A stretch of 48,875 bases of DNA, the filler included, from Jimgerdemannia flammicorona (Eukaryota), in assembly GCA_003990765.1 (NCBI GenBank). It is 2 parts of 2 records of this genome, joined end to end, with 100 filler letters (N's around TTAATTAATTAA, not from the genome) between each part and the next. Parts side by side here need not be neighbours in the genome. Positions count along the whole stretch, not along the records: positions 1 to 24,390 come from RBNJ01000980.1; 1 more part is not named here. One strand, written 5' to 3'. Below, one piece after another: positions 910 through 44,777 of this stretch (position 1 is the stretch's first letter; every line of letters starts with the position of its first letter). The position numbers were made by a program, and so were the translations under genes. The notes beneath the pieces were generated by a model, which did not search any database, was not told where the DNA came from, and worked only from the letters and a program-made list of their open reading frames with translations.

Positions 910-3900
910 TATGGCTCACCAAATCCAAGAACTTCAAGTACAACTAGAACAGCAGAGAATAAGAACTACAAGTACATCATATGTATTCTACTATAGCATT
1001 AGTTAGTTTCAAGCTACTCAAGCCCAATACTTTTGATAGTCATTGAGGAGAACTATCTACAGATACATGAATCTTCTAGTTGGACCAATACTTTGAGCTC
1101 ACAAGAATGGAAGAAGATATGTAAGTCTAATTTGCCACTATACTTCTCTGAGAAAATACAGCCATTTGGTGGTACAATCATATTATGACTATGTCTATAC
1201 ACTCATATGCATGAATCAGAACTAGAAAGCTTTCAAGAGAGCTCTTTACAAGCAGTTTAAGTCTGCTAATACTACCAAGCTAGTCAGAGACAAGCTAGCA
1301 AACATCAAGCAACTCAAGTCTGTATAAAGCTACAATATATAATTCTTATCAATCTTATTCAAGCTACTAGTAATATCTGAGGATGAAAAGATAGACTACT
1401 ATATCTGAGGCCTGAAGAGAAATATATAAGTTAAGGTTGAGCTAGAAGAGCCCAAAACCTTAATGAAGCTATGAGAATTACTGATAGATTTGATATCATT
1501 ACCTTTGGTAACTACTTTGAACCAGAATACTACAAGAAGAACTACTTCGAGAACTGCCACAAGAACCAACCAAGGATAGTTGGCCTGGTACTAATGGACT
1601 TAGATACTATAAATAAAAGAACACCAAGCTTACTCCTGAAGAAAAGGACCATCTGAAGAAATCTGGAGTCTGTTTCTTCTATTACCAAACAGGACATATT
1701 GCAACCAAATATCCTAAGAAGACTAGTGAACCCTCAAGACCAGTCACTATATTGTCTAAGGATACATCTGTCAACCCCACTACTAGTTAATCTAAGCTCA
1801 AGATCAAGAAGCTTCATCTGAAGGCCCAGGTCTCTCAATATTAAACAGAAGGAGCTATTGGTCTTAATCTACACTCTATCAAACAAGTCACCATTCTAGT
1901 TAAGGGCTAAACTCTGATGCCTACTGGAATTGCAGTTCAATGTCCTGAAGGACATTATGCCAAAATTGTACTATGATCAGGACTTAGTATTAAATATTAT
2001 TTAGATGTAGATACTGGTGTCATTGATCTAAACTTTCAAGGACAAGTTCAAGTTCTGCTTATCAACCAGAAGAATCAAGACTACACAGTCAAGGAAGGAG
2101 ACCAAGTCATATAAATAATCTTGGAAAAAGCTAGTCAATTCAAGATCACAGAAGTCTAAGAACTCCTTGAAACCAAATAAGACCAAAAAGGTTTTGGTAG
2201 CACTGATTAAGTAGCAAGTCTTAGTAAAAATTGAGCTCAAGCTATACTCATTTTCAAAGGCCTAGTCAAAGGAAAAGAAGTTTAAGTACTCATAGACAAT
2301 AGAGCTATAGAGAACTTTATCAATTAGAACCTCATCAAAAGTCTCAAGATCCTTATCAAGCCTGCACCCAAGAACAATAGTAGAGTCACTGCAGATAGTA
2401 CTCTATACCCCATCAAGTCAATTACTGCCAAACTATCCATCAAGATCCAGAAATATTGGGAATGAGTAGACTTCAAAGTTGCACTACTAGGAGATCATAG
2501 TCTGATCCTAGGAAAACCCTGGCTTATAAAATACAACCCAGACATTAATTGGTATAAGAATGAAGTTATCTTATTTCAAGATGAAGCTAATATCACTATC
2601 AAGACAGACAACACCATGAGCAAGATCCAGATTGCAACACTATCAGCTATATAGTACAAGAGAGTACTTAAGAAGACAATGTATGCCTTTATTGTAATAG
2701 TCTGTCCCAAGAAATAAGACAAGAGACTATCAGTCAATAAAAGCATCAAGTTACTGCTAGAAGAATTTAAGGATGTCTTTCCAGATAAGCTACCTGGCCT
2801 ACCACCTATATGAGAAGTTGATCATGAAATCAAACTGACCCCAGAAGCTATACTACCTAAGAAATATATATACTATATATCACTACTTGAAATTGAAGTA
2901 GCCAAGAAGGAACTAGAAGAACTACTTACATGAGAAGCCATTAAGCCAAGCAAATCTCCTTATGGCTCACTAGTTCTATTTATTAAGAAGAAGGATGATA
3001 TTCTATAAATATATATAGACTATCATGCACTCAACAAATTCACTGTTAAGAACACTAATTGCTACTCTTGATTGATCAAATCTTTGATGCTCTTAAGAAT
3101 GCTAAGTACTTCACCAAGTTGGACCTCATGTCAGGATACCACCAGATCTGAATCAAGTCAGAAGATATTCTCAAGACTGTGTTCATGACTCTCTTTGGAC
3201 ACTATAAATTCCTAGTCTTAGTATTTGGTCTCACCAATGTACCCACCACATTCCAGACCCTGATAAATAAGATATTTAAGAACCAACTATTTATTTTCCT
3301 ATTGGTATATCTTGACAACATCCTGATCTTTAGTGTAACTAAAGAAGAATATCTCAATAGTCCTGGAGATCCTGTGAAAACACAAGCTTTATACCAAGCA
3401 CAAGAAGTATGAATTCTTCAAAAAATAAGTTAAATATCTTGGCCACATTGTCTCTGTCCAAGGAATTCAAGTAGACCCATACAAGATAAAAGCAATTGAA
3501 GAATAGCTCATTTCATCAAACTCTAATTCTTTCTTGGTCTAGCTGGCTACTACTGCTACTTTGTTAGAAACTTCTCTGATATTACTGAGTCACTGACTAA
3601 CCTCATGAGGAAGGCCCCACACTCAGACCACTATGTATCCTATACCTGAGATCTCTTCTATCAATAATCTTTTCAAGAACTCAAGAACTATCTGACCCAT
3701 GCTCCAGTTCTGTATAATGTAGATCAAGGTTTAAAATTTATAGTCACCACTGATGTATTGAATTTTGCCATAGAAGCAGTTCTGTTACAAGATGATGGTA
3801 AAATAAATCATCTTATTACTTTTGAGTTCTACAAGTTGGCCCCAGCTGAACAAAAGCTAGCCACTCATGAAAAGGAACTACTGGCAATAATACATGTACT

Positions 3901-4607
3901 AGACCACTAGCAATGCTATCTAGAAGGTATTGAGTTTGATGTTATTACTGACCATCAATCTCTCAAGTACATCAATACCCAACCTACTCTATTATATCTA
4001 TAAGTCAAGTAGAGCCTCAAGTTTCAAACCTTCAATCTGATGATCATCTATAAGCCTGGCAAGACACTGGTAGTACCAGATACCTTATCAAAATGCCCTG
4101 ATCTCACTACAATCATATAAGTCACCTTGGTATCAGAATTTCTAGACTAAATTAGGCAAGCTTATAAAGAAGATACAGTTGCCATTAGAGTTTTCTTGAA
4201 TGAGCTCAAGGATATATATACTGTTGAGAACAATCTGATCTATCATCAAGACCAAGTCTATCTATCTGAAAACATAAACCTATGCTATAAGATTTTGCAA
4301 GAATACCATAACTCCTCTCTTACCAATTATCTGGAAATCAAAAAGACTGTTAAGAATATTCAATGCCACTACTATTGGCCAAGCATGGTCAAGGAAATCA
4401 AGAATTATATTGCCAGCTATAATCTATGCCAGTACAACAAGTCTACCAACCAAGTACCTGCTGGTTTGCTATAACTACTGCCAATTCCTACTAAGAAATT
4501 TGAGCAAGTTATTATGGACTTTATAACTCAACTACTATGAACTCAATCTGGTACTAATACTATCATCATATTCATTGACCACCTGATCAAGACTATAGTT
4601 GCTAAAC
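910..4607 (+). pseudogene. gag-dUTPase-pol pseudogene of element A
   Basis: ORF fragments 3179-3412 (FGLTNVPTTFQ, YLDN) and 4196-4474 (YH...YYWPSM integrase zinc-finger region). Many premature stops. Confidence 0.85.
1796..2207 (+). pseudogene. dUTPase domain of element A, between gag and protease
   Basis: Manual translation gives PTGIAVQCPEGHYAKIVL*SGL, GVIDLNFQGQVQVLL, GDQV and KGFGSTD, which are the trimeric dUTPase motifs. Confidence 0.85.
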
Positions 4608-5174
4608 TGTAAGCACACAACCTCCAAGCTACCGAAATTACACATCACCCTCTGAACAAGCCACTGAAATCACACATGACCTCTGAACAAATCTGGAAAT
4701 CACCTGCTTGATCACGAAGCTGAGTCAATACGAAGTCACAGAATACAAGATTTACACAAATAGAATCTTACCAATCAGGACCAAATGCATATATACCGAG
4801 CACCGAGACATATCGAATCAGAGAACCAAAACAAACAACAACTACAACTTCTAAACATACAAACATGACCACCAAGATCTATACCCATATCCACACTGAC
4901 ATTTGGAATGCCATTGTTAACTGAGTCACACCCCCTCTGCCCCTCATGAATATCCATAGCCTAGCACCCCTCTACTTCATGGAAGCCTGATGGAATGCTC
5001 TGAACATGCTTAGTGAGGCCCACCGAATCGGACAAATCTCAAGCTACTACCAGATCGGCCACCTCCTGGAAGACATAATTGAACACTACCATGATACAGA
5101 CATCACCCAGATGTCTCAACACTAGAAGCTCATTGCCCACAAACATCGAGAACTCTTCTATGAGTAGTGCTCTC

Positions 5175-5370
5175 AAACAAATCAAATATATTCGAATTGA
5201 ATCAAATTGAGATTGATTCGAATTGAATGGAAATAGAGATTTTCATATTCGAATTGAATTCAAATCAAATCAAATTTGAATCGAATTGGGGGTTCAATTC
5301 GATTTGATATGAATCGAATTGGGGGTTTGATTCGATTCGATATGAATCGAATTAGAAGTTCGATTGAGGG
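5175..5370. repeat. hAT subterminal pentamer array (AATCG/AATTG/GATTC); counterparts at 9535-9600 and 9710-9805
   Basis: Directly visible runs such as GAATTGAATCAAATTGAGATTGATTCGAATTG. Confidence 0.85.
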
Positions 5371-5519
5371 TCTCAATTTGTCACATGTAACACATGCTAC
5401 AAAAATTTTTATTGCCAAGTAACTGAAATTCTTTTTATTGTCTATCTCCCTGCACCTGCAATGGTCTACTTCCTGCGATGCCTGGCTATAGCTGCCATCT
5501 GCTAAGCATTGTTATATGG

Positions 5520-6233
5520 TCATTTTTCAAGAGGAAGGTTTGGAGTCAATGGGTTTAACTTTTGGCAAATTTTGGGTAAGATACTGCATGTCTTTTCATA
5601 CCACTGGCAATTGAAGTAGTTCATGCAAGGCTTGCCTCTTGGCCTACTTGGAGCAGTGGCGGCCTTAGCAGCATCAGCAGCCTTGGTAGCATCAGCAGTC
5701 TTGGTGGCATTGGCAGCCTCATTGGTGGCCTTATTGGTAGCCTCATTGGCTGCCTCATTGGCAGCCTCATCATCTTGAATGGTAAGGATGGTGTTATTGT
5801 CTTGAATTGCAGTCTCGTCTTGAATTTCTTGAATGATGGTCTCATTGTCATCTTGAATAGTAATGATGGCCTTGTCATCTTGAATAGTAATGATGGCCTC
5901 ATCATCTTGAGTGGCCTTGTCATCTGTTAAAAGGAGAATAACCTCTTCTCCCTCGCTGCTGCTGGCTGAAAGGAGGATAGCCTCATCTACCTTGTCATCG
6001 TCTAAGTTGTCATCATCGTCTGAATGGAGGAAGATAGCATCATCTGTTGCCTTGATGAATTCTTCAATGGTATCTATAATTTTTCTTTTTTTCCTTTTAT
6101 ATTGAGCTTTGGTGGTGGTTGTTCCTTCTTCATTTAGCCATGTAACGATTCTGCCAATTCGATGATTCATCATTTCAAACACTCCAGAGATGGTTTCAAG
6201 ATAAGCGTGAAGGTTATTTGTGGGAGTATTCAT
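5520..6233 (-). CDS. Passenger ORF inside the hAT, 237 aa, unknown function
   Basis: Open from ATG, with TATAAATA ~70 bp upstream (6301-6308, minus strand). Contains a KRKKRK basic patch, an acidic tract, IITIQDD and ANEA/AADA repeats. Confidence 0.6.
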   Translation of the reverse strand: MNTPTNNLHAYLETISGVFEMMNHRIGRIVTWLNEEGTTTTKAQYKRKKRKIIDTIEEFIKATDDAIFLHSDDDDNLDDDKVDEAILLSASSSEGEEVILLLTDDKATQDDEAIITIQDDKAIITIQDDNETIIQEIQDETAIQDNNTILTIQDDEAANEAANEATNKATNEAANATKTADATKAADAAKAATAPSRPRGKPCMNYFNCQWYEKTCSILPKICQKLNPLTPNLPLEK

Positions 6234-6329
6234 TATGAAAGTTATTAGCGAGAGAAATGTTTTTTTTTTTTTTTTTCTTTTCTCACCATTAGAGACAGCT
6301 TATTTATACGTTTTACCTGATGTCATAGC

Positions 6330-6750
6330 CATAGCCATATCTGAAGTGCCATATCTGAAGCTCTTGACTATATATGTTTGAAGCACCACCTGACTATATA
6401 TGTTTGAAGTACTGCCATATCTAAAGCTCTTGGCTACATATATATTCAAAGCACCACCTGACTATGTATGTTCAAAGTGCCACCATATCTGAAGTGCTGC
6501 TATATCTGAAGCTCTTGGCTACATATGTTCGAAGTACCACCATATCTGAAGCTCTTGGCTATGTATATTTGAAGCACCACCTGCACTTAAATCTGTTAAG
6601 TATTTGTCTCAGCATTTGCTCACTGTCACTGACAAGAACCAAGAGTTTGCTCTTTGCTGCCATATTCGAAGCACTGCCATATCCACTTGGCTACGTATGT
6701 ACTGCCATATTGGAAGCTCTCGGTGCCACCACATCTGAAGCGGCTATCAT
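6330..6750. repeat. Degenerate tandem repeat with core GCCATATCTGAAGC inside the hAT
   Basis: About ten recurrences of (G)CCATATCTGAAG, interspersed with GCACCACCTGACTAT and CTCTTGGCTA blocks. Confidence 0.8.
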
Positions 6751-6854
6751 TTTGACCAAGGGGTTTTATTTGAAGGTATATGTATCAGAAATTACCAGAA
6801 AAAAAATATATATATATATTTTAAGATTTTGAGATTGACTAGCTTATTGGAATA

Positions 6855-7966
6855 TTAGACTGATTGCTATGCCTTTAAACACATATATTCACAAATTGTT
6901 TCAGGGTCTAAAGCATATCTTTTTAATGATACAAGATCTTTACCCTTTGAAAATATTCTTTCAATTGGCATGCTTATTATGGGGATGGCTAAATAGTCAC
7001 ATGCCATTTTTGTTAGATTTGGGAAATCTCCACTATGGCCCTAATATTTTTCATAAATGATTAAATCAAAAAGAAATTCTAAAATTTCAATTTGAATATA
7101 CATATATAAAAATTCTCAACTTACTTGCCACCAAGATAATATATCAACTCCTGGTGGATATTCAACAGTTTCATGTTTCAAATAAATATCTACCTCTTGC
7201 TCAGGAATCGCCGTCAGTTTCTGTCATTTGTTAAACATATGTTCTTGTAGTTCAGCATCCACATCATCTCTAGTATCTTCAATATTAGAACTTGCTCAAT
7301 AAACTGATCCAGCTAGAGGGGCATAGGTTGCATTATAGGTTATGTAAAATGCATTTTTCACCTCTTCAATCCACTCGGGTTCCCAATTGTGAGATATATA
7401 ATATTGTAATTTAAGCCTAGGATTGAGTACTGGTTTTATTCAAAAAAGAAAAAAATTAGTTTAATTTCGAAATATAGCCAACATTATTTTGAATATATAT
7501 ACTTACTGGTACCAATATAATAAATTGGAGTATCTGTCCTTTTATAATATTCTTTCAACTTAACAATAGCTGCTGTTAGTGCCAGGTGAATGGGATTCGA
7601 CTCTTCGGTATTATTATCCTCCAACTTATCTAGTAAGAAGTTGTAAATCAGAACAGTAGAATAAATTGTTGAATATTTATGCTGCATAGCAAGATCTATT
7701 GCTTGTTTGAAGCACTTTAGAATACCAACAATGTCTTTTAACACCTGCCAAGTATAATCTTCAATGGCATATTTTTGAAAATCCCTATCAGCAATAATGG
7801 TTGCAGTTAAGGGCTAAATATAATATATATATAATAGTAATTAATTTGTTAGATTATCACTCATAAATAAATTAAATATATTCAATTCAAAATATTTTGA
7901 AATATTTTGAATCGAATTGCCAATTCAATTTGATACTATTTGTTGGGAGTACTGATCTGAAGAATG

Positions 7967-7997
<31 letters not shown>

Positions 7998-9513
7998 CTT
8001 ACTTCTAATAATTCTAAGGCTTGTTCAATTATCGAATATGTTGAATTCCATCGAGTTCTAACATCCAATATGAGTTCTTTTGGATTGCTGATTCCAAAAA
8101 TTCTATATTACTTAGCAAATTGCTCTTGACACTGTAGTGAAGATCAGATCTTGGTAATAATCATTCAGAGCCTTGATATTTCTCCATTCTCAGTTATATT
8201 ATCATCTTCACTCTCAGCCTTCAGACAGATTAAAAATGCCTGAACAGCCAGGTTAATGATATGCACCAGGTAGTATACATGTTGTATTGGTGGATTGTTA
8301 AGGTAAGTGTGATCGAATTTCTCCTGAATTATTCGAAAAAACACATTATTGTTGGATGCATTGTCTATTGTTATAGCCAATATCTAGAGTGAAAATCAAT
8401 AATTTGAAATATAAGATAACTGTATTTCGAAATATATATATATTTTTTTAAAAAAAAAAATCACAATCTTTTTCATGTGAAAATATAAAACAAAACCACC
8501 TGTTTCCAAAATATGAAATTATATATCTTTATTGATATCCCAAAGTCTCTAATATAGTTCATGAAGGCATCAGCAAGATTTTCACCTGAATGAGGTCCTG
8601 ACAGCTTGACAAAATCAATCAACATACAGTTGAGTTGCTAATTCTGACTGATCTAATGTGCATTAATTTCAAGAAATACATGCATATTAGGTGATGTCCA
8701 TGTGTCAATAGTGAAAGATATTCGACCAAATACATTCTATTTCCAAATAAATTAATCGGAATGAGCTTAATTCGAATTAAGATTTGAATAAGTCAAAATA
8801 TTAAATCTTACCTGTAGCTTAATTTTGATGGCATCATGACTCCGTTGAAAAGCTAGTCTGATTTCATTTCGAATAGTTCCAGCAGAAGGAATAGTAATGT
8901 CTGGTTTCAGAAGACAAAAAATATCTTTCAGCTCTAAACTCTCAACAACTGTAAAAGGCTGATTATTATCAATAATCTAGCAAATGAGCTTGTCTTGAAA
9001 TAACTATATAGAGAATTTTGGCTATTTAAAAAAAAAGAGTTCTTAGGACACTCATCAGCATAGCCACCAGCTCCCCCAATTACAACATGGTCAAAAGGTA
9101 AACCATACTTGTAATAAGTACGAATCTATCATTCTAACCTGAAGACTCTTATGGTGTTTGTTGAAATGCATCCACAAATTTGTTGTTGAGCTACCTTTAG
9201 ACTTATATTTTACTTTACAGTGGTTATACTTCAGAATGACTTCTCTATCATCCTTGTGCACCTTCGTAAACTCCTTCCAAATATCAGAGTGTGTATGGTG
9301 TGCTCTTCCTTTTCCTTTTGCAGATTGTATTGAGGTTGTTACTACACTTATTGAAGTTGTATCTATTGACATCATGACTGTTATTATAGTATCCTCTGTA
9401 ACTAATAGTGGTGTAAAAGGCTCATCTGACATGCTTGAATACATTAAGGAAGGTAGTTGTATATTGTGAGTTTCAACGCATGTGAGTTTCCAATTACCAT
9501 ATTGAGTTTCCAA
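6855..9513 (-). pseudogene. Intron-containing hAT transposase with BED zinc finger
   Basis: BED-like SDIWKEF...NHC...SSTTNLWMHFNKHH; FTIDTWTS; GPHSGENLA; ITIDNASNN; DVRTRWNSTY; C-terminal dimerisation region LSWW...FPNLTKMACDYLAIPISSMPIERIFS. GT-AG introns, e.g. ~9004-9109 and ~8738-8811. Premature stops. Confidence 0.92.
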
Positions 9514-10746
9514 TTACCATATTGAGTTTTGAGGATCGAATTGAATTGATTTGATTTGACTTTGGAATCGAATCAAATTGATTTGATTCGATTCAATATT
9601 ATTGAGTTGACTGTCACATCATTTTATTTATATACTAGTATTGTAATATTTATAATTGGGCAGTGGCTTACATGACTATAATCCCTCATTCAGCTGATAG
9701 AGAAATCTTATCAAATCAAATTGAATTGAAACTTGAATCAAATTGGCCTCAATTCAAATCAAATCGAATCAAATTTGACTTATATTCAATTCGATTCGAT
9801 TCATTAAGAGCACTATCTACAAGTATAGCACCATTATTCTCTACCTCTAAGTTACTACAGCTGAAATGGTTGCTACCCAGTCCTATGGCCAAATTGATGA
9901 CATGATACAAGAACTCAATCACAAGTATCTCGAGTACGTCGAAACCACAGACAGAACCTTCCCACACTCCAATGATCATATCCTGCAAATGCCTCAAGTT
10001 GGATATACTATGAAGGACATCTACAATATAATCCACTTCAATGAAGATAAAGCAGAAGACAATGATCCCTCTGATGCTGACATGACCTCTAGTCAAGGAT
10101 CTCTGCCAACCCTGATCACACCACCAACCTTGCCAATAAACTTACAACAATTTATAACAGTATATGAGACTTATTGGGACAATGACCACTGGCATGAATA
10201 CCAACCCGCATTCACTCCTGATTACTTCAACTACAATGAAGAGACCAGAGAACATGACCTGTACCTCCAGACAACCCTCAAGATTGAACCAACCACTCCA
10301 CCACTCAAGTATGAGTGATATGAACCACAGCCACCAGCTTACTACAACCCCATGACTCATAGTGCTGTAACCTATAGAAGGTATGCAGACAGTGAATCTA
10401 ATGAAAGTGAAGATGATGCACTCCTCCTTCACCCACCAACACCTTATCCAGCATATGAGACAGATGATGCTATTCTGTGGGATAGTGATGAAGTTCCAAT
10501 GTATTATTACCTCAGTGAACAAGGAGAAGTAATCCACAAACCATTCTTCCTAGATGACTACTTCATCAGAGATGATACAATTGATGGTGATGTCATTGAA
10601 GACTACCCAGACAGTGCCTGAACCATAAATAGCCTAGCAGTCATAGTATAGTTAGATTAGCCTTGTACTATATGACTGTATTTCAACTCAGCAAGGCACT
10701 TAGTGCTATATCCATATTCAGCATAGTACAGATAGCCCCTCACTAG

Positions 10747-10754
10747 TATAAATA
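10747..10754 (+). promoter_or_regulatory. LTR TATA box of element B (second copy 19007-19014)
   Basis: GTATAAATACCCCC in both LTR copies; the same motif occurs in the LTRs of element E. Confidence 0.7.
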
Positions 10755-11223
10755 CCCCCTCCCCCAGATCTCAGAATCTCAGACTCGAACATATAAGAAC
10801 ATTCCTGAATACTTCCCCACAACATCCCTTCATACAACTACTCCTAGTATAGCAATATTATGAATAGCAAATAAACCTATTTAATAACCCACAAACCACT
10901 CTTAAGTAAATCCGCTCTCCATTAGGTCTCACTTCTAACCCCATCACGAAATTTCCTAATTGGGTATTGTCTGCAGTGATACACTAATTCAACTAAGCTG
11001 GTCTTAGTTTCTTGAACTTCCTGAAATACGGAAAATCCTGAACATCCAGAACTAGTCCAAAAAAGAACTTTGATTGAGACATCAACTCGATCTTGAAATC
11101 AATAAGTGTAGAGGATGTATTCCATATGAAATTGATCTTGACCAATAGAAAATAGTCTTCCAGAATATCCAGAACTTTCAGAACTACATAACAGTTACCC
11201 TAAAAAGCAACCCTCTTATAACT

Positions 11224-11236
11224 TGGTAGCAGCAGT
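11224..11236 (+). promoter_or_regulatory. Primer binding site of B1, initiator tRNA-Met type
   Basis: TGGTAGCAGCAGT three bases after the LTR end. TGGTAGC complements the 3' end (GCUACCA) of eukaryotic tRNAiMet. Confidence 0.8.
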
Positions 11237-13247
11237 TTATAATCCAATTCTGCTTCAAGACACTTCCTCACTCTACTACAAACCCTTCTGAGAATTCCTA
11301 CAAGTTGGTATAAAGCCCAACCTCTGAACTGGAATTTATCCCGAACTATCTGACAATCTGGAGAGAATTGAACCTGACATACAAGAACAATTTGACCTCT
11401 ACACCACAACAAGTGGGATAAACTTTATTCAAAGAAAGAAGTACTCCAGTTAAACTAGCAAATAGGTGAAACCCTATTTACTGAACTCCTTGCACTACAT
11501 CCAGCAAGTCAAGATGAAGAAGGTCTTATTGATGCCTTCTTTACTCTTCTCAATAAGAGTTTTATTAGCTCCACAAATCTGAGCGACCTAGGACAACCAG
11601 CAGCAGTCTTCCTAGCCTTAGTTCCTCACAAAGCCCAAGCCTCTGTAGTCAAGTGGCTCAACTCTACTGACTTTCACCATACCAGGACCAAGACTGCATT
11701 ATATTATTGATTCCAGAACAGCAAGGCCTACTATATTCTTAAAGAAGAAGTAAGAGAAACCCTTCATCAACTACCTGACCCTGAACCTGAAGCAGGCCCT
11801 GTTACAGCCCTACCTGAATCTGAAACCAATACCAAACCTGAACTTGACTTTGAATTAAGTCCATCTGAAATCAGATATACAACTGATTCTATCTACTTTG
11901 ATGCCAAGCAAACCCAATTACACAGGGATCAAACCGAAGAGAAAGAGGAGTATCTCAGTGAATTCGATCCCGGATATACCATAGAAGGAGAAGTACCTCC
12001 ATCAGGACAGAATATACCTACACAACAACAAACAGTTATCTATTAAGCCCTCACTCCAGACCCACAACTACTACTCCAGCAACTTATACAGACCCAAAGA
12101 ACTCCATCACACTCTGCACCAGTACCTCAAGTAGTACTAGTAACACCACTACCAGCAGTTCAACTGCCTCCAGTAAACAACATGGCGAACCAACAGATTC
12201 TAGACCTCACAGCTCAGGTAGCCATAATGGCAGCAACCATTACTGCCTTAGCTAAACAGACCCAACCCACCAAAAAATCTGAGCCTACCTACCTTCAATG
12301 ATACTGCACAAGAAGTCCAAAGCTTTATTAGTGTAGTTGACACAAACTTCGAAGCTAATCAATGGACCAATGAGTGAGTTACTGACTGCGTTCTGACAAA
12401 CAATCAAGACCATACTCTGGAACAACTCTTTGCTACCACTACAGCCTATATCCACTGAGTTGTTACATTCTTCCAAGGACCTGCTGAAGAATAGTGGCAA
12501 ACTCTTCCTGAAAAACCCCTCACATGGGATACCCAACCTGCAGTAGTTGCTCAGAATGTAGCAAACAATGCCCCAGGATATAGAGCCCATCCTGCAGCCC
12601 CTGGACTCAAACAACTCATGATTGCCCAATACTGCAGTGAAACCATGATCCCTGAATCCCGAGTAAAACTCCACAACCTCAAATTCAATATACATGGCAA
12701 AGAAGAATTCGAAACCTTCTGTACAAAACTCGAGTCATTCCTGAACACTGTTGGCCTAGGATATATCACCAATGATGAAGCATGAAATGGTATAAGAGCA
12801 GACCATTTATTTGATGCCCTGCCTGAACGGCTTACTAGAAAGATCCAAGAACAAGGCCGCCCAGTTGGTTGTGATCACCAACAATGGTGCCTGGCAAAAA
12901 TCAAGACTATGGTCAAGCAAATCCTAACAGCTGGACCAATTCTGCTCTGAAGACAATTCAACAATAAGGAAAGAACTTGGACCAAGAAAGAAGAACCTAA
13001 GCATGAAGCATCCCGAGCTCCCTCCACATCCACCTCTTGGACACCCAGAAATCACAAACCCACTCAGCCAAGTATCTTCAAGAAACTTATTGAAGGCGAA
13101 AGGAATGAACTTCGAAGAAGCAGAGCATGCTTCTATTGCTGAAAGACAGGACATATAGCCAGTACCTGCCCTAACCAAAAACCCTGAATAGCAACAAGAG
13201 CAACTATTACCACTCTGCACCACCTCAACAATCTGACCACCAGAACA

Positions 13248-13655
13248 CTAGACTTTGTGAAGTTAAGATAAACTGCTAAGGCCCCAACCAAAGGAAGCCA
13301 AAAAGCAGCTGGATATGACCTGTATACAGCCGAAAAAGCTACAGTTTTCAACTGAGAAGTCAAACAAGTCTATACAGGAATCAGCATCCAAATCCCTGAA
13401 GGACATGTTGGAAGAATATGCTGTTGCAGCAGCCTAGCATTGAAAGGACTCTCAGTAGAAGGAGGAGTTATCGATGAAGATTACACAGGCGAAATCATTA
13501 TCCTCATCTGAAACCATAGTTGGACACCCTTCAAGATCTCTATTGATTTCTGCATTGCCCAGATCCTATTCAAAAAAATCAAGTCAACCCAGACAGTCAA
13601 GGAAGTCTCTGAACTACTGCCCACCATCCAAGAATCCAAAGGATTTGGCTCATCA
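13248..13655 (+). pseudogene. dUTPase domain of B1 (B2 copy at 21509-21920)
   Basis: KAPTKGSQKAAGYDLY, TGISIQIPEGHVGRI, SSLALKGLSVEGGVIDEDYTGEI, IAQILF, KGFGSS. Confidence 0.92.
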
Positions 13656-16600
13656 AACAAGACTCCAACTCAACCTACTACAAGCAAAGAAGAACAATTC
13701 TACAAGAAGATCGAAGATAGATATGTATCAAGTGGCTGATGCCCTCATGGCATTGGAATGTACTCTTCCCAAATGATTGATGATTGCTTCTCTTGTATCA
13801 ATGAACTGGCTCAAAGAAGAACCAACAGAAGGAAAGCTCCTACAACTGAAATCACCACCATTGGATCAGACAAACTGCTCACACTTAAGGCTTTTGTCAA
13901 CCGAGCACCTGTCAAGATTATGATAGACAGTGGTGCCTCAGGCAACTTCATCAATGAAGAAACAGCCAATAGACTTAAGGTCTTCACCTCTCCGGTACAA
14001 CAAACCCAAGCAGTAGCTACAGCTGATGGAACCTCACATGTTATTAGCAAGGAAGTCCACAACCTACCCTTCCGAATTGGTGATTACTGAATATATGTTA
14101 CTCTCCAAATTGTACTACTTCCTGACAATAAAATCATCCTTGGGACTCCATGGTTAAAACAAGAGAACCCTATGATCGATTGGGTAAACCATTCTCTGAC
14201 CATCAAGAAAGGATGCCACAACTTCAAACTGCAAGGCGAGAAGGACCCACTCAATTCTAGTAATCCTGGACTAAAGATCACCCACATCAACAAGCTACAA
14301 CTTAAGAAATTGGCCAAGAAATGCCCTCTCTTTGCCATCTCCATCCATCCATCCAAAGGAGAACCCAAGAACTCTGAAGAAGATTTTTCCAAAGTTGATA
14401 GCCATGTCAGACCACTACTCCAGAAATTCCAAGACATATTCCTAAAGAAACTCCCAAAAGGCCTACCTCCTAAACAACCAGTAGACCATACCATCAAGAC
14501 TATCCCAGATGCCAAACCAGCCTTTAAGTCAATCTACCACATGTCTCTAAGAGAAATTGATGCACTCAAGAAAGAAATTGATAAACTCCTAGAATAAGAA
14601 TTCATCAGACCCAGCATATCACCTTATGGTGCACCAGTCCTATTTGTTGTTAAGAAAGGAGGAGACCTGTGAATGTGTATTGACTACCATGACCTCAATG
14701 AACAGACCATCAAGAACTGTTGCCCACTACCAAGAATCGATGAAATATTCAATAGACTCACTAACCCGCAATTCATGAGCTCCTTTGACCTGCAAAATGG
14801 TTACTGGCAAATTGCCATGAAAGAAGAAGACATCTACAAGACAGCTTTCTGAACTCACTATGGATACTTTGAGTTTCTGGTTATGCCCTTTGGCTTAACT
14901 AATGCTTCTGCAACCTTCCAGATCCTGATGAATACTATCCTGTACCCATACCTAGACAAATTCATTATTATCTACATTGATGATATCCTAGTCTTCAGCA
15001 AAACTCTGGAGGAACATCTTGAACACCTTGAACTAGTTCTACTGAAACTCCGAGAAAACCGACTCTTTGCAAAACTCAGCAAGTGTGAATTTCTTCTGAA
15101 AGAAATTCAATTCCTTAGACACATTGTCACTCCAAATGGAATCAAAGTGGACCCTAGCAAAATCTCTACAATCAAGGATTGGCCCAGACCCAAGAAGCTG
15201 AAAGACCTCCAGTCATTCCTGGGGTTAGCAAACTATTACAGGCAATTTGTTGCCAACTTTGCTAAAATCACTACTGCTCTCACCCAAATGACCAAGCACA
15301 GTAAGAAACAAGAACAACCCTGGACCATGAAACAAGAGAAAGACTTCAACAATCTTGTAAATTGGGGACCCGAGCAAGATACCACCTTTCAAGTACTGAA
15401 GGATGTCTTGATAACCACTCTAGTACTTCAAGTGGCAAACTCTGCACTGCCATATGAAGTTACCACTGATGCTTCTGACCTAGTCCTTGGAGCAGTACTT
15501 ATGCAGGAAGGACACCCTGTGGCCTATCACTCCTGTAAGTTCAATGATGCTGAAATTAACTATGCAACCCATGAGAAGGAAATGCTAGCCATTATAGATA
15601 CTCTGATCAAATAGTGACCCTATCTAGAAGGAGCACACTTCACCATATTAACTGACCACAAATCATTGGTCAATATCAAGACACAGGCTACCCTTTCTCA
15701 AAAGCAAGCCAGATGGATGAAAGTCCTTACCAACTTTGACTATGAAATCCAGTACTACCCTAGCAAGGAAAATATTGTTGCTAATGCAATCTCTAGAACA
15801 TCAATTGAAGAGGTTATCCAAACTCTCACCTTGGTTACAAACTCCATCATGGAACAAATTATCACAACATGTACCAATGATAAGGAAGCTCAAGCACTGT
15901 GAGAAATCCTGAACAGTAATGATGCCAACAAATATACACAGTATCACCAATACCAACTGAAAGACAATGCTATCTACTACAAAGATAGACTGTATGTCCC
16001 AAACACCTGAGACCTCTGAAGGACTATCCTATTCAAATGTTATGATGCCCCTACAGCTGGACATTTAGGATTTGATAAATGTTATGAAGTTATCTCTTGA
16101 AACTTCTATTGGCCCTGCATAGCAGATCAGCTCAAAACCTACATCACTTCCTGTAATGCCTGCCAATGAAGTAAGTCCTCAACACTAGCAAAACCCGGCT
16201 TACTTCACCCTATCCCAGTACCATCTGCAAATTGGGAACAAATCTCTATAGACTTCATTGTACAACTATCCTGAACCAAGAATGGGAAAGATGTAATTGT
16301 TGTCTTTGTAGACTATCTCAGCAAACAAGCCCACTTTATGCCTACTACTACTACTGCAACAGCACCAGACATAGCCACACTCTTATTTGACAACATCTTC
16401 CACTATCATGGTCTTCCTAAGATCATTGTTAGCGACCGAGATCTGAAATTCACCAGCCATTTTTGGAAAGCCCTCTATGCACACCTTGGAACAAAACTTG
16501 CACTATCCACAGCCTTTTACCCAGAAACTGATGGCCAAACTAAAAGAATGAACTGAACTCTAGAATAAATGCTAAGGAACTATGTTTCCTACAGACAAGA

Positions 16601-17527: not shown

Positions 17528-19493
17528 TGTAAGTGCACAACCTCCAAGCCACCGAAATTATACATTACCCTCTGAACAAGCCACTGAAATCACACACAAC
17601 CTCTGAACAAATCTGGAAATCACCTGCTTGATCACGAAGCTGAGTTAATATGAAGTCATAGAATACAAGATTTACACAAATGAAATCTTACCAATTAGGA
17701 CCAAATGTATATATACCGAGCACCGAGATGCATCAAATCAGAGAACCAAAACAAATAACAACTACAACTTCCAAACACACAAACATAACCACTGAGATCT
17801 ATATCCATATCCACACTAACATTTGGAATGCCATTGTCAACTGAGCCACACCCCCTCTACCCCTCATGAATATCTATAGCCTAGCACCCCTCTACTTCAT
17901 GGAAGCCCGATGGAATGCTCTGAACATGCTTAGTGAGGCCCACCGAATTGGACAAATCTCAAGCTACTACCAGATCGGCCACCTCCTGGAAGACATGATC
18001 AAATACCACTATGATACAGACATTACCCAGATGTCTCAACACCAGAAGCTCATCACCTGCAAACATTGAGAACTCTTCTATGAGTATAGCACCATTATTC
18101 CCCGCCTCCAAGTTACCACAGCTGAAATGGTTGCTACTCTGTCCTATGGTCAAATCAACGACATGATACAAGAACTCAACCACAAGTACCTCGAGTACGT
18201 TGAAACCACAGACAGAACCTTTCCACACTCCAATAATCATATTCTGCAAATGCCCCAAGTTGGATACATTATGAAGAACATCTACAATATAATCCACTTT
18301 GATAAAGATGAAGCAGAAGACAATGATCCCTCTGATGCCGACATGACCTCTAGTCAAGGATCTCTGCCAACCCTGATTACACCACCAACCTTGCCAATGA
18401 ACTTACCACAATTCATAACAGTATATGAGACTTATTGGGACAATGACCACTGGCACAAATACTAACCCATGTTCACTTCTGATTACTTCAACTACAATGA
18501 AGAAACCAGAGAACATGACCTGTACCTCCAGACAACTCTCAAGATTGAACCAACCACTCCACCACTCAAGTATGAGTGATATGAACCACAGCTACCAGCT
18601 TACTACAACCCTGCAACTCATAGTGCTGTAACTTACAGAAGGTATACAGACAGCGAATTCGATGAAAGTGAAGACGATACACCCCTCCTTCACCAACCAA
18701 CACCTTATCCAGCATATGAGACAGATGATGCTATTCTGTGAGATGGTGATGAAGTTCCAATGTATTATTATCTCAGCGAACAAAGAGAAGTAATCTGCGA
18801 ACCACTCTTCTTAGACAACTACTTCATCAGAGATGATACAATTGATGATGATATCATTGAAGACTACCTAGATAGTGCCTGAACCATAAATAGCCTAGCA
18901 GTTATAGTATAGTTAGATTAGCCTTATACTACATGACTGCATTCCAACTCAGCAGGCACTTAGTGCTACATCCATATTCAGCATAATCCAGATAGCCCCT
19001 CACTAGTATAAATACCCCCTCCCTCAGACCTCAGAATCTCAGACTCGAATACACAAGAACATTCCTGAATACTTCCCCACAACATCCCTTCACATAACTA
19101 CTCCTAGTATAGCAATATCATGAATAGCGAATAAATCTATTTAATAACCCACAAACCACTCTTAAGTAAATCCATTCTCCATTAGGTCCCACTCCTAACC
19201 CCATCATGAAATTTCCTAATTGGGTATTGTCTGCAGCAATATGCCAATTCAACTAAGCTGGTCTTAGTTTCTTGAACTTCCTGAAATATGGAAAATCCTA
19301 AACATCCAGAACTAGTCCAAAAAAGGACTTTGGTTGAGACGTCAACCCGATCTTGAAATCAATAAGTATAGAGGACATACTCCATATGAAATTGATCTTG
19401 ACCATAAGAAAATGGTCTTCCAGAACATCCAGAATATCTAGAAAATCTTTCCAGAACTATGTAACAGTTACCCTAAAAAGCAACCCTCTTATA
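17528..19493 (+). repeat. LTR2 of element B (1966 bp), shared between the two internal regions
   Basis: Preceded by a PPT and followed by a PBS (TGGTAGCAGTAG at 19497). Confidence 0.95.
17785..18882 (+). pseudogene. LTR-encoded accessory ORF, copy 2 (365 codons)
   Basis: One frame containing ORFs 17866-18069 and 18127-18465. The start is ATA where copy 1 has ATG, and it ends DYLDSA*. Confidence 0.75.
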
Positions 19494-19495
19494 AC

Positions 19496-22400
19496 TTGGT
19501 AGCAGTAGTTTATAATCCAATTCCACTTCAAGATGCTTCCTCACCCTGCTACAAACCCTTCTGTGAATTCCTACAAGTTGGTATAAAGTCCAACCTCTGG
19601 ACTGGAATTTATCCTGAACCATCTGACAATCTGGAGAGAATTGAACCTGATGTACAAGGACAATTTGACCTCCACACCTACAACAAGTGGGATAAACTTC
19701 ATTCAAAGAAAGAAGTACTCCGGTTAAACCAGCAAATAGGTGAAACCCTATTCACCGAACTCCTTGCACTACACCCAGCAAGTCAAGATGAAGAAGGTCT
19801 TATTGAAGCCTTCTTTACTCTTCTCAACAAGAGTTTTGTCAGCTCTATAAATCTGAGTGATCTAGGATAACCAGCAGCAGTCTTTCTAGCCTTAGTTTCT
19901 CATGACGCCCAAGCCTCTGTAGCCAAGTGGCTCAACTCTACTGACTTTTACTGTACCAGGACCAAGACCACATTATACTACTGATTCCAGAACAGTAAGG
20001 CCCACCATATTCTTAAAGAAGAAGCGAGAGAAACTCTTCATCAACTACCTGATCCTGAACCTGAAGCAGGCCCTGCTATAGCCCTACCTGAATCCAAAAC
20101 CAATACCAAACCTGAACTTGACCTTGAATTAAGTCTCTCCAAAATCAGATATACAACTGATTCTGTCTACTTTAATGCCGAGCAAACCCAATTACACAGG
20201 GACCAAACCAAAGAGGAGGAGGAGTATCTTACTGAATTCGATCCTGGATATACTACAGAAGGAGATGTACTCCCATCAGGACAGAATATACCTACACAAT
20301 AACAAACAGCTATCTATCAAGCCCTTACTCCAACTACTCCAGCAACTTACACAGACTCAAAGAACCCCATCACACTCTGCACCAGTACCTCAAGTAGTAC
20401 CAGTAACACCACTACCAGCAGTCCAACCACCTCCAGCAAACAACATGGCAAACCAACAGATTCTTAATCTCACAGCCCAAGTAGCTATAATAGCAGCAAC
20501 CATTACTGCCTTAGCTGAACAGACCCAACCTACCAAAAATCTGAGCCTACCTACCTTCAATAGTACTGCACAAGAAGTCCAAAGCTTCATTAGTGTAGTT
20601 GACACCAACTTTGAAGCCAATCAATGGACCAATGAGCGAGTTGCTGACTACATTCTGACAAACAATCAAGACTATACACTGGAACAACTCTTTACTACCA
20701 CTACAGCCTATGTCTGCCAAGTTGTTACATTCTTCTGAGGACTTGCTGAAGAATGGTGGTGAACCCTTCCTGAAAAACCCCTCACATAGGATACTCAACC
20801 TACAGTAGTTGCTCAGAATACAGCAAACAATGCCCCAGGATATGGAGCCCATTCTGCAGCCCCTGGACTCAAACAACTCATGATTGCTCAATACCGCAGC
20901 GAAACCATAATTGCCAAATCTCGAGTAAAACTTCACAACCTCAAATTTGATGTACATGGCAAAGAAGAATTTGAAACCTTCTGTACAAAACTCGAGTCAC
21001 TCCTGAACACTGTTGGCCTAGGATACATTGCCAATGATGAAGCATGAAATGGTATAAGAGCAGACTACTTATTCGATGCCCTGCCTGAATGGTTTACTAG
21101 AAAAATCCAAGAACAAGACTGCCTAGTTGGTTGTGACCACCAACAATGGTGTCTGGCAAGAATCAAGACTATGGTTAAGCAAATCCTAACAGCTGGACCA
21201 ATCCTGCTCCGAAGATAATTCAACAACAAGGAAAGAACTTAGACTAAGAAAGAAGAACCCAAGCATGAAGCATCCCAAGCTCCCTCAACATCCACCTCTT
21301 GGACACCTAGAAATCATGAACCCATCTAGCCAAGTACCTTCAAGAAACTTACTGAAGGCAAAAGGAACAAACTTTGAAGAAGTGGAGCATGCTTCTATTG
21401 CTGAAAGACAGGTCACATGGCCAGTGCCTGCCCTAACCAAAAACCCTGAACAGCAACAAGAGCAACTGTTACCACTCTATACCACCTCAACAACCTGACC
21501 ACCAGAACACTAGACTTTGTCAAGTTAAGACAAACTGCTAAGGCCCCAATCCAAAGAAGTCAGAAAGCAGCTGGATATGACCTGTATGCAGCTGAAGAAG
21601 CTACAGTTTCCAACTGAGAAGTCAAACAAGTCTACACAGGAATCAGCATCCAAATCCCTGAAGGACATGTTCAAAGAATATGCTGTCACAGCAGCCTAGC
21701 ATTGAAAGAACTCTCAGTAGAAGGAGGAGTCATTGACGAGGATTACATAGGTGAAATTATTGTCCTTATCTGAAACCACAGTTGGACACCCTTTAAGATC
21801 TCTATTGGTTTCTGCATCGCCCAGATCTTATTTGAAAAAATTAAGTCAATCCTGACAGTCAAGGAAGTCTCAGAACTACTGCCCACTATCTAAGGATCCA
21901 AAGGATTTGGCTCATCAAACAAGGCCCCAGCCCAACCTACCATGAGTAAAGAAGAACAATTCTATAAGAAGATTGAAGATGGATATGTACCAAGTGGCCA
22001 ATGCCCTCATGGCATTGGAATGTACTCTTCCCGAATGATTGATGATTGCTTCTCTTGTGTCAATGAATTGGCTCAAAGAAGAACCAACAGAAAGAAAGCT
22101 CCTATAACTGAAATCACTACCATTGGATCAGACAAACTGCTCACACTTAAGGCTTTTGTCAACCGAGCACCTGTCAAGATTATGATAGACAGTGGTGCCT
22201 CAGGTAACTTCATCAATGAAGAGACAGCCAACAGACTCAAGGTCTTTACCTCTCCAGTACAGCAAACTCAAGCAGTTGCTATGGCTGATGGAACCTCACA
22301 TGTTATTAGCAAAGAAGTCTACAATCTACTACTCCAAATTGGCAACTACTGAGTACATGTTACCCTCCAAATCATACCACTTCCTGACAATGAAATCATC

Positions 22401-24390
22401 CTTGGGACTCTATGGTTAAAACAAGAGAACCCCATGATCGATTGGGTAAACTATTCTCTGACCATCAAGAAAGGACACCACAACTTCAAACTGTAAGGCA
22501 AAAAAGACCCACTTAATTCTGGTGACCCTGGACCAAAGATCACCCACATCAATAAGTTACAACTTAAGAAATTGGCCAAGAAATGCCCACTCTTCGCCAT
22601 CTCCATCTGCCCATCCAAAGGAGAACCTGAGAATTCTGAAGAAGATTTTTCCAAAGTTGACAGCTGTGTCAGACCACTACTCCAGAAATTTCGAGACATA
22701 TTCCTAAAGAAACTCCCGAAAGGCCTACCTCCTAAACGAGCAGTAGACCATACCATCAAGACCATCCCAGATGCCAAACCAGCCTTCAAGTCAATCTACC
22801 ACATGTCTCTAAGAGAAATTGATGCACTCAAGAAAGAAATTGACGAACTTCTAGAGTAAGGATTCATCAGACCCAGTGTATCACCCTATGGCACACCAGT
22901 CCTCTTTATTGTCAAAAAAGGGAGAGACCTGTGAATATGCATTGACTACTGCAATCTCAATGAACAGACCATCAAGAACTGTTGCCCACTACTGAGGATT
23001 GATGAAATATTCGATAGACTTACCAACCCACAATTTATGAGCTCCTTCGACCTGCGAAATGGTTACTAGCAAATTGCTATGAAAGAAGAAGACATCTACA
23101 AGACAGCTTTCCAAACTTACTATGGACAGTTTGAGTTCCTGGTTATGCCCTTTGGCTTAACTAATGCCCCAGCAACCTTTCAGACACTGATGAATACCAT
23201 TCTGCATCCATACCTAGACAAATTTGTTGTTGTCTACATTGACGACATCCTAGTCTTCAGCAAAACCCTGGAGGAACATCTTGAACACCTTGAACTAGTA
23301 CTACTGAAACTCTGAGAAAACCAACTCTTTGCAAAACTTAGCAAGTGTGAATTTCTCCTGAAAGAAATTCAATTTCTTGGACACATTGTTACTCCAAATG
23401 AAATTAAAGTAGACCCCAGCAAAATCTCTGCAATCAAGGATTGGCCCAGACCCAAGAAGCTAAAAGACCTCTAGTCATTCCTGGGATTAGCAAACTATTA
23501 CAGGCAATTTGTTGCCAACTTTGCTAAAATCGCTACCGCCCTCACCCAAATGACCAAGCACAGCAAAAAACAAGAACAACCCTGGACCATGAAACAAGAG
23601 AAAGACTTCAACAATCTTGTAACTTGGGGACCCAAACAAGATACCACCTTTCAAGCACTGAAAGATGCCCTGATAACTACTCCAGTATTTCAAGCGGCAA
23701 ACCCTGCACTATCATATAAAGTTACCACTGATGCCTCTGACCTAGCCCTTAGAGCAGTATTCATGCAAGAAGGACACCCAGTGGCCTATCACTCCTGCAA
23801 GTTCAATGATGCCGAAATCAACTACACAACTCATGAGAAGGAAATGCTAGCCATTGTAGACACTCTGATCAAGTGGCGACTATACCTAGAAGGAGCACAC
23901 TTCACTATATTGACTGACCACAAGTCATTAGTCAACATCAAGACCCAGGCTACCCTTTCTCGAAAGCAAGCTAGATGGATGAAAGTCCTCACCAACTTTG
24001 ACTACGAAATCCAGTACCACCCTGGCAAGAAAAATATTGTTGCCGATGCAATCTCCAGACCACTAATCGAAGAGGTTATCCAAACTCTCACCTTGGTTAC
24101 AAACTCCATCCTGGAACAAATTATCACAGCATGTGTCAATGATAAGGAAGCTCAAGCACTACGAGAAATCCTAAATAGTGACAATGCTGACAAGTATACA
24201 CAGTATCATCAATACCAACTGAAGGACAATGCTATCTACTACAAAGACAGACTGTATGTCCCAAACAACCAAGACCTCCGAAGGACTATCCTATTCAAAT
24301 GTCATGATGCCCCTACAGCTGGACATTTAGGATTTGATAAATGTTATGAAGTTATCTCCCAAAACTTCTATTGGCCCTGTATGGCAGATC
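19496..24390 (+). pseudogene. B2 polyprotein from leader to integrase zinc finger, truncated by the spacer
   Basis: ORFs 21942-22352 (DSGASG), 23079-23315 (YIDD) and 23550-24390 (RNase H, CHD...GHLG). Colinear with B1. Confidence 0.95.
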
Positions 24391-24490
24391 NNNNNNNNNN
24401 NNNNNNNNNNNNNNNNNNNNNNNNNNNNNNNNNNTTAATTAATTAANNNNNNNNNNNNNNNNNNNNNNNNNNNNNNNNNNNNNNNNNNNN
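24391..24490. other. Artificial assembly spacer N44-TTAATTAATTAA-N44
   Basis: Symmetric Ns around a palindrome that has stops in all six frames; exactly 100 bp. Confidence 0.97.
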
Positions 24491-24510: not shown

Positions 24511-24731
24511 AGACATGAGTGTGTCCACAGGACATGAGTGTGTCCACAGGACATGAGTGTATCCTCAGGACACAGATAAACAATCCTGATCTGGTATCTT
24601 GGCTAATTATAAGTATGGCAGGTATGAGTAACTATGATATACTGGAAGTCACATCATGCTGAGTAAGTATGCTAATTGTTCGCATCATCTGGCTAAGTTA
24701 TAATTCAGGTGGTACGTTTTGGTCTGTTACA
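24511..24731 (-). repeat. Partial 3' LTR of element D, with 19-bp tandem repeats CAGGACATGAGTGTGTCCA
   Basis: Matches ~33635-33873 with only transition differences seen. Confidence 0.93.
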
Positions 24732-27969: not shown

Positions 27970-28369
27970 TCCTGTCTGAACTTCCAAATCCCTTGGCTTG
28001 TCTTGTTCCTTCGGCTAGTTCAGAGACTTCCTGTAACTGTGGGGTCTTGACCTTCATGAAGACTGCTTGGGCAATCTTCTGTCCTCTAATGATTTGGTGC
28101 CATTCTGCACTGCTGTTGTGTAGGATAACCTTGATTTCGCCTATATATCCAGGGTCAATAGTTCCTCCTTCTACAGTTATTCCTTGTCTGGCAAGTCCGG
28201 ACCTTGAGGTCAGTTGAATATAAGCTCCTTGAGGTGGCTGTATGGCTAATCCAGTTCTGACCATGAAGGTTTTTCCAGGCTTGATGGATTCATCCTCTAG
28301 GCTGTGAAGATCATATCCTACATCCTCTGGGTGGGCTTTGGTCAGGGGTTTGGCCTTGGGGTACAGCAA
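27970..28369 (-). pseudogene. dUTPase domain of element D, between protease and RT; frame still open
   Basis: DVGYDL, TGLAIQPPQG, SRSGLA, GGTIDPGYIGEIKV, IAQ and RQAKGFGSS in ORF 27734-28369. Confidence 0.95.
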
Positions 28370-44700: not shown

Positions 44701-44777
44701 CTGTCCAAAGTTGGTCTTATTCCAACTTCAGGAGTGTGTTCTTGGTGCCTTCTTGGCTGGTAATCCACTGCTACCAA
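38720..44777 (-). pseudogene. E polyprotein: leader-gag-dUTPase-protease-RT-RNaseH-integrase-chromodomain
   Basis: Gag ATG at 43890, CFICKKAGH, dUTPase ~42430-42830 (ERSSLA, VVDQGFTGEI), VLLDSGATGNYI, VYIDDIL, TTDVSDIAIGAVL, IAIDFIVQLP and chromodomain EEFKIEEVLDH...IKWKGYPTHDATWE. Confidence 0.95.

Follow-up and report, generated by a model that had tools for sequence, protein, structure and literature searches.

We analysed a window of 48,875 nucleotides (nt) from the genome of Jimgerdemannia flammicorona (GenBank assembly GCA_003990765.1; two parts joined by filler, with positions 1–24,390 from RBNJ01000980.1), and describe here the interval from the primer-binding site (PBS) to gag in the retrotransposons that it carries. 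[quoted passage not shown] B1 (9802–16128) and B2 (18064–24390), both on the + strand and delimited by self-comparison, are 90.2% identical to each other. On the − strand, E is flanked by LTRs of 793 bp (36416–37208 and 44780–45572; the pair is 90.8% identical), and D is a further − strand element recognized through Pfam and self-comparison. All four display the Ty3/gypsy domain order of protease, reverse transcriptase, RNase H and integrase (Pfam). The E LTR ends in ...TTACA and is followed by AC and TTGGTAGCAG, that is, a CA-ended LTR with an adjoining PBS; the B1 LTR ends at 11220, again followed by AC, and the B1 PBS (TGGTAGCAGCAG; 11224–11235, + strand) is a CpG-decayed form of TGGTAGCAGCGG. 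We take the primer to be initiator tRNA-Met; the window itself contains no tRNA gene.

The interval between PBS and gag is occupied by a long frame that contains no in-frame ATG. In B1, this leader frame (11223–12181, + strand) begins at a TTG that overlaps the PBS (11223–11225) and leads into the gag ATG at 12182–12184 (+ strand), which matches the usual Gag start of related elements; it is interrupted by five stops (starting at 11289, 11325, 11456, 11708 and 12044) and a 1-nt gap at 11405/06. In B2, the frame (19496–20444, + strand) likewise runs from a leader TTG at 19496 to the gag ATG at 20445–20447 (+ strand), with three stops (starting at 19868, 19982 and 20300) and a deletion after 20332. 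These features agree with the original prediction that an ATG-free frame joins the PBS to gag in both copies and that B1 has lost 1 nt near 11405; the B2 deletion, placed near 20330, is also present, with a size of 11 nt rather than 10. The two copies had further been expected to complement each other to a single frame. Their lesions mostly differ, but one TGA is common to both (11708–11710 = 19982–19984, + strand; Arg at this place in E and in the metagenomic relative L004 described below), so that complementation is incomplete. Over 19487–20332, B2 has only 3 stops in 282 codons, whereas dinucleotide shuffles gave a best-frame mean of 13.9 and none of 2,000 had three or fewer; in-frame ATG is absent where 3.6 were expected from the same type of shuffle (P = 0.025).

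All comparisons above were made between individual copies, and further B copies were available in public sequencing runs, the richest of which were soil metagenomes and the coded 'organism A'; the runs listed included none of RNA. Contigs of four runs (X1, X8, X3 and X2) were aligned to 19300–20500, for which 40 of the 212 variable places were listed; 1,073, 88, 150 and 131 short contigs, respectively, cover this leader region, which indicates a high-copy family. At the B2 stop at 19868, the sense nucleotide C accounts for 693.9 of 708 depth in X1 and for all depth in the other three runs; at 20300, C accounts for all depth in X1, X8 and X3 and for 12.3 of 14.3 in X2. Some contigs also carry approximately 11 nt at the site of the B2 deletion (GATCCACAACT in one X2 contig and GACCCACAACT in one X3 contig). 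Position 19600 reads A in 12 of the 12 covering contigs from the four runs, yielding TGA as in B1; this TGA of B1 and other B copies lies 34 codons after the PBS TTG and 29 codons before a conserved Trp.

The E leader (43891–44777, − strand) consists of a PBS-proximal frame of 62 codons and a main frame from 44694 that leads into the gag ATG (43890–43888, − strand). The same layout with a single frameshift had been proposed for E: the layout is indeed found, as is one change of frame, needed in the first 60 or so codons from the PBS, and six stops exist besides. The main frame (6 stops in 268 codons) opens independently at 21 codons ahead of the conserved Trp. At the DNA level the leaders of B and E share approximately 50% identity, yet they are clearly homologous as protein: alignment of the B1 and E leader proteins gave a local score of 97 against 40.1 ± 6.9 for shuffled sequences (z = 8.2; reached by 0 of 500), and the peptide matches between B and E that were originally quoted are all present. 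Several B/E differences inside conserved motifs (for example, HHT.TKT.LYY) are synonymous. Between families, identities at codon positions 1 and 2 exceed those at position 3; these values rest on a protein-guided alignment, and are therefore not counted as evidence. In D, approximately 180 Met-free codons after the PBS had been claimed, a figure that does not hold: the element has an open stretch of 141 codons without in-frame ATG (31562–31987, − strand) up to an ATG at 31564, proline- and acid-rich and preceded by a stop at 31988–31990, and no PBS of this type was found in D.

Scanning metagenomes with the LTR-end/PBS motif yielded 34 loci, 29 of which have the undecayed PBS (...CAGCGG) and 20 of which have an open reading frame (ORF) of at least 150 amino acids near the PBS. 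Three loci whose ORF starts inside gag (L002, L024 and L034) were left out and two (L004 and L006) were taken apart, leaving 15 ordinary relatives. In every one of these 15, Gag starts 86–234 nt after the LTR end with Met and a coiled-coil-like segment, which corresponds to the MANQQIL... of B, and no ATG in any frame comes between the PBS and this gag ATG. Scanning from the cap to the first AUG is thus the rule in this family. One ordinary relative, L021 (nt 546–1655, PBS on the + strand), has a PBS frame (..SYNLVAAD..) that is open and in frame with the gag ATG 127 nt downstream, and a short TTG-initiated extension would be possible there. The single match to the PBS pattern in genome contigs (L035, in a Photorhabdus genome) was taken as chance.

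The decisive evidence comes from beyond the window: L004 provides an apparently intact example of the layout seen in B and E. A frame of 964 codons, without a break as far as the contig end, encodes zf-CCHC and dUTPase domains (Pfam) and has its first Met at codon 263. From Met263, the L004 Gag matches E from 43890 (34% identity, tblastn E = 1.6e-57) and B2 from 20445 (tblastn E = 8e-51), so that 262 Met-free codons are fused to gag ahead of the same gag Met as in B and E, families whose Gag proteins are only 32–34% identical. L006 is a 99% identical copy of L004 with one stop and a different U5, the part of the LTR adjoining the PBS. The U5 ends of L004 (first 67 nt) and L006 (nt 267–333) are identical at 64 of 114 positions, shared PBS included, a difference that could reflect recombinant elements or chimeric metagenome assembly.

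The L004 leader has the signatures of a coding sequence. It contains 0 stops in 262 codons where 10.5 are expected (stop-free in 0 of 3,000 shuffles), and the other five frames contain 9–20 stops. Codon frequencies in the leader correlate with those of gag-pol in frame (r = 0.74) and far less out of frame (0.19 and 0.25), and the composition of the three codon positions is gag-like. In addition, nt 1–900 of L004 contain no ATG in any frame (expectation for the leader, 4.6; P = 0.003). This absence results from synonymous codon choice: before a codon starting with G, NAY codons (Y, T or C) of the leader are NAC in 13 cases and NAT in none, compared with 22 NAC and 14 NAT elsewhere in the leader (Fisher P = 0.0098) and 14 NAC and 18 NAT before G in gag-pol. 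The codon preceding the conserved Trp of L004 is the rare AGG (2 of the 23 leader Arg codons; 19 of the 23 end in A). The ATGs that do occur in the leaders of B1, B2 and E are all (14 of 14) of the type NAT followed by G; among the six in B2, B1 reads NAC followed by A at three, and other copies read C in place of T for two more. An open, gag-like frame purged of AUG in all frames is expected if the leader is translated and scanning must also reach the gag AUG. The PBS-to-gag interval of B and E is a true coding frame that is continuous with gag and in which ATG is absent and avoided; a gag-continuous open frame without in-frame AUG is found in L004 and, with decay lesions, in B1, B2 and E.

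The same data bear on two explanations that need no translation of the leader from a non-AUG codon. If the leader were untranslated, its openness could be left over from coding sequence that was captured, or could follow from composition or constraints at the RNA level, with ATG avoidance merely keeping the 5′ untranslated region (UTR) scannable; the strand is T- and G-poor, which lowers the frequencies of stops and ATG, the conserved blocks near the PBS could be RNA signals, and the encoded domain matches no predicted protein in database searches. Composition is nevertheless taken into account by the dinucleotide shuffles, which still expect 10.5 (L004) and approximately 14 (B2) stops; the gag frame alone is open, codon usage and the choice of NAC before G are frame-specific, and the layout is kept across families with Gag identities of only 32–34%, all of which renders an untranslated leader improbable. 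Alternatively, a spliced (as the original prediction also suggested) or otherwise alternative transcript might supply an AUG, or the leader might be an intron-like segment that is removed from the gag mRNA, given that retroelements splice to make subgenomic RNAs. We consider this unlikely: the R–U5 region (repeat and unique 5′ region) of L006 itself has no ATG to splice from, and for a leader removed in this way, an open frame, codon usage like that of gag and avoidance of ATG in the other frames would all be unnecessary.

The conserved part of the extension is an N-terminal helical domain, which in B1 spans 11414–11776 (+ strand) from the invariant Trp to just past a YY motif. A five-row leader alignment has the invariant residues W, L, F, L, FL, K and YY. 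AlphaFold2 (AF2) applied to this alignment (L004 as query) predicted six helices over residues 13–141 and a disordered acidic tail at a mean predicted local distance difference test score (pLDDT) of 50.5, with helix block means mostly of 53–85 and one of 48; a fold search with the model returned a best Z of 5.4, mostly to single helices, and was uninformative. The maximum 19-residue hydropathy of the leaders is 0.51–1.31, without any membrane-type segment. Searches for homologous proteins with the L004 leader found none in the length bands 530–1687, 1688–4820 and 144–459 amino acids, no usable match in the ESM Atlas and no similarity to its own gag-pol, and a profile search of PDB sequences with the leader gave 0 matches; scans of viral contigs, a metagenome scan with a protein alignment and a protein scan of genome contigs also returned nothing. 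Two hits were discarded. A HMMER search of 1.84 billion representatives with the B2 leader gave one match, a repeat protein with an 11-fold GDTLFSELLAL motif that was judged spurious, and Pfam gave only a sub-threshold TPPII_C for the L004 leader (E = 0.0017). The helical domain of approximately 140 residues and the acidic tail that follows it have no detectable relatives.

To consider where translation could start, we examined the region upstream of the PBS. A TATAAATA box (10747–10754, + strand) in the 5′ LTR of B1, identified from the B1/B2 alignment and a putative promoter element, would imply approximately 450 nt of R–U5 ahead of the B1 PBS. One explanation, which the original prediction named as the outcome that would overturn it, is an ordinary AUG in U5 and an ORF that reads through the PBS as in Ty1, the ATG having decayed in these copies. 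B2 does have an ATG in U5 (19412–19414, + strand) that shares the leader frame and precedes the PBS TTG by 28 codons, and at its place B1 reads ATA; moreover, the frame can be traced through the PBS in B2 and E, and the QVGIKPNL/EVGIRPTL block shows partly synonymous differences. This ATG, however, is in the leader frame only by virtue of a private 13-nt insertion that is absent from B1 and itself bears a TAG (19439–19441). At this triplet, single X8 contigs have ATA (19399) and ACA (19428) in their loose ends, and loose ends at 19434/19440 in X1 and X8 indicate that other copies lack the insertion, without which the ATG opens an upstream ORF (uORF) of 25 codons that ends in the PBS. Both E LTRs have two in-frame TAA codons within 20 codons upstream of the PBS, no ATG occurs between the TATA box (163–172) and the PBS of L006, and in L004 the 67 nt of U5 are free of ATG and the long ORF is closed by a TAA downstream of the PBS. 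With no conserved in-frame U5 ATG open through the PBS, a decayed ordinary start near the PBS is very improbable.

The U5 of B has a further ATG: that at 11126 (B1) and 19386 (B2) opens a short uORF, which in B2 ends at a TAG inside the PBS (TGG TAG). In the B1 form, where ATA stands in for the ATG of B2 19412, the frame of this ATA likewise ends at the PBS TAG (19386–19500 in B2 and 11126–11229 in B1).

A second possibility is initiation at the PBS TTG itself, such that binding of the tRNA primer and initiation would compete for the same bases. The TTG has a strong context (A at −3 and G at +4), and any element with such an LTR end and PBS has it by construction; starting at the TTG, the frame is open in B2 and E, and in L021 it is open to the gag ATG. 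L004 and L006 speak against such a start, given that the PBS TTG of L004 and L006 is in a different frame that stops after 41 codons and that a TAA between PBS and ORF closes the L004 frame 15 codons before the Trp. In addition, the TGA 34 codons after the TTG occurs in B1 and in all 12 contigs covering 19600, and E must change frame to reach its main frame. We therefore regard the TTG as an improbable start overall. The proposal that the PBS doubles as coding sequence does not hold as a general feature, on account of the out-of-frame TTG and the TAA in L004 and of the TGA in most B copies. Nonetheless, the frame is traceable to the PBS TTG in B2, and in E through a frame change, and a longer form started at this codon may exist in the B2/E lineage.

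Further downstream, the brief open run that precedes the conserved Trp contains, in each family, a near-cognate codon in a strong context. The candidate starts are a CTG in B (11358–11360 in B1, corresponding to 19631–19633 in B2; + strand) and a GTG in the main leader frame of E (44677–44679, − strand), both in frame with A at −3 and G at +4; an ACG in L004 and an ATT at 19640 in B have the same context.

We propose that the PBS-to-gag interval of B, E and L004 would encode an N-terminal extension of Gag and Gag-Pol, composed of the helical domain of approximately 140 residues and then an acidic, proline-rich linker. Not far downstream of the PBS, a fraction of the scanning ribosomes would initiate at a strong-context near-cognate codon (candidates being CTG 11358 in B, GTG 44679 in E and the ACG in L004), and the others would pass through the leader, which is free of AUG, and make ordinary Gag from the conserved AUG, so that two Gag isoforms would arise from one RNA. 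An AUG start is unavailable in L004, given that no AUG occurs in any frame upstream of its gag AUG. That the elements yield an extended Gag by non-AUG initiation had been part of the original prediction; an interval that is coding, in the gag frame and AUG-less, in L004 as well, is what we find, and the initiation event itself is deduced from these signatures. On balance we narrowly favour an AUG-less leader that would give rise to a non-AUG-started extended Gag, with leaky scanning to the gag AUG producing two isoforms. The broader statement, that a clade of chromovirus-type elements of soil eukaryotes makes a much longer second Gag and Gag-Pol through a non-AUG start, with a leader purged of AUG synonymously so that normal Gag is also made, as a retrotransposon counterpart of glyco-Gag whose domain is unrelated and not described before, is more tentative, and we would put it at somewhat short of an even chance.

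Several observations weigh against this proposal. The similarity between the L004 and B leaders is weak (z = 3.7, reached by 2 of 500 shuffles; hhalign E = 0.033 over 121 colinear columns) and that between the L004 and E leaders is non-significant (z = 0.7), so that the equivalence of L004 to B and E rests mainly on position and gag homology. Only one intact family was found (L004/L006), and its two members differ at four leader sites (three synonymous and one not), too few for a ratio of non-synonymous to synonymous substitution rates (dN/dS). B1–B2 differences show a weak skew over codon positions (23/13/30, P = 0.036), with the transition bias of 59:7 as a confounder. B has ATGs in R–U5 upstream of the PBS, and its leader is thus not AUG-free from the cap. 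Finally, the candidate start codons occur at non-aligned positions across the three families, and approximately 0.3–0.4 such codons are expected per stretch searched by a rough estimate, which makes these candidates only suggestive.

Other features of the elements concern their decay and boundaries. CpG observed/expected ratios are 0.07–0.20 in the elements and 0.02–0.20 window-wide, AT-rich flanks included, compared with 0.88 in L004, and the differences between B1 and B2 are almost all transitions (59:7 in the leader); extreme CpG depletion and divergence of copies almost wholly by transitions point to CpG decay of a methylation type or resembling repeat-induced point mutation (RIP) in the host. 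The B LTR is apparently approximately 1.9–2 kb long (4608–5166, 9802–11220 and 17528–19493); 17528–18086 matches 4608–5166 at 92%, so that the 5′ LTR of B1 is apparently split by a 4.6-kb insertion (5167–9801), and B1 and B2 seem to have one LTR in common (LTR–internal–LTR–internal). An integrase fragment at 4151–4471 suggests a further unit upstream. Runs of N at 24391–24434 and 24447–24490 occur at the B2/D junction, and the apparent truncation of B2 and the end of D are consequently unreliable. The 220-bp matches that resembled D LTRs are tandem repeats of a short unit (ACACTCATGTCCTGTGGAC-like; arrays at 24512–24731, 32762–33096 and 33654–33873) beside an N-run and were rejected as LTRs; neither true LTRs nor a PBS of D were found within the window. 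E encodes C-terminal Chromo and SH3_Tf2-1 domains (38750–39112; Pfam). dUTPase domains lie between gag and protease in D (27737–28486), E (42394–42699) and L004 (ORF residues 882–963), and an isolated dUTPase fragment (35454–35771) lies outside the annotated elements.

Several known systems resemble the layout in part. In murine and feline leukaemia viruses (MLV and FeLV), glyco-Gag (gPr80) has a CUG-started in-frame extension of 88 residues with a signal-anchor segment, and leaky scanning yields two Gag isoforms from the genomic RNA. The elements described here likewise extend the gag frame ahead of its AUG without any in-frame AUG further upstream, but their extension is approximately 260–320 residues long, without a hydrophobic signal-anchor and without sequence similarity; the host elements are of the Ty3/gypsy chromovirus type, with no env detected, and the non-AUG start is here a deduction. 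When assessed as a member of the glyco-Gag family, the extension contains no hydrophobic 19-mer above 1.31 and has no Pfam, PDB-sequence or protein-database match. In yeast Ty1, the gag AUG lies in U5 and the PBS inside the ORF. The PBS can likewise fall in an open frame in B2 and E, whereas a U5 AUG is unsupported here and the L004 PBS lies outside the ORF. Plant Ogre elements carry an ORF1 upstream of gag. Additional ORFs (aORFs) of plant LTR retrotransposons are described as occurring upstream or downstream of gag-pol (PMC7264820), and a figure legend gives the abbreviation 'add. ORF' together with dUTPase domains for depicted elements of fungi and one spikemoss (PMC2864245). Insofar as these sources describe them, such elements resemble ours in having extra lineage-specific coding sequence between the 5′ LTR and gag and, in some fungal chromoviruses, a dUTPase ahead of the protease. 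aORFs and Ogre ORF1 are separate ORFs, in contrast to the fusion in frame to gag seen here, with neither ATG nor stop of its own: no ATG and no stop separates leader and gag in L004.

A parallel among Ty3/gypsy-derived genes is PEG10, a mammalian gene for which translation is described from the AUG and also from an in-frame CUG upstream of it, with a 5′ UTR that lacks an in-frame AUG and an extension of 34 residues demonstrated by mutagenesis (PMC2800197). As so described, PEG10 shares with B, E and L004 a gypsy-type gag with an AUG-less in-frame upstream extension; it differs in the size of that extension, which here comprises a domain and linker of more than 260 residues, and in that our examples are mobile elements known from sequence signatures. 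A narrow literature search found no description of a non-AUG-extended Gag in an LTR retrotransposon, which is weak evidence of absence. The mechanism proposed is known from MLV glyco-Gag and PEG10; what differs here is the size of the extension, its homology to nothing and its fusion to gag without an ATG or stop of its own.

If the leader is translated, gene finders that require an ATG miss a whole Gag domain, and the protein searches made here indeed found none. With translation, free-living LTR retrotransposons would also join gammaretroviruses and PEG10 in producing dual Gag isoforms through leaky scanning. The signature of ATG avoidance (0 ATG in 900 nt, and NAC but never NAT before G) is simple to compute and could help to find hidden non-AUG extensions in other retroelements. 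If the start in the B/E lineage is the PBS TTG, primer binding would be coupled to translation. For the elements themselves, the extra domain is a candidate for a role in targeting, in the control of assembly or in evasion of host defence.

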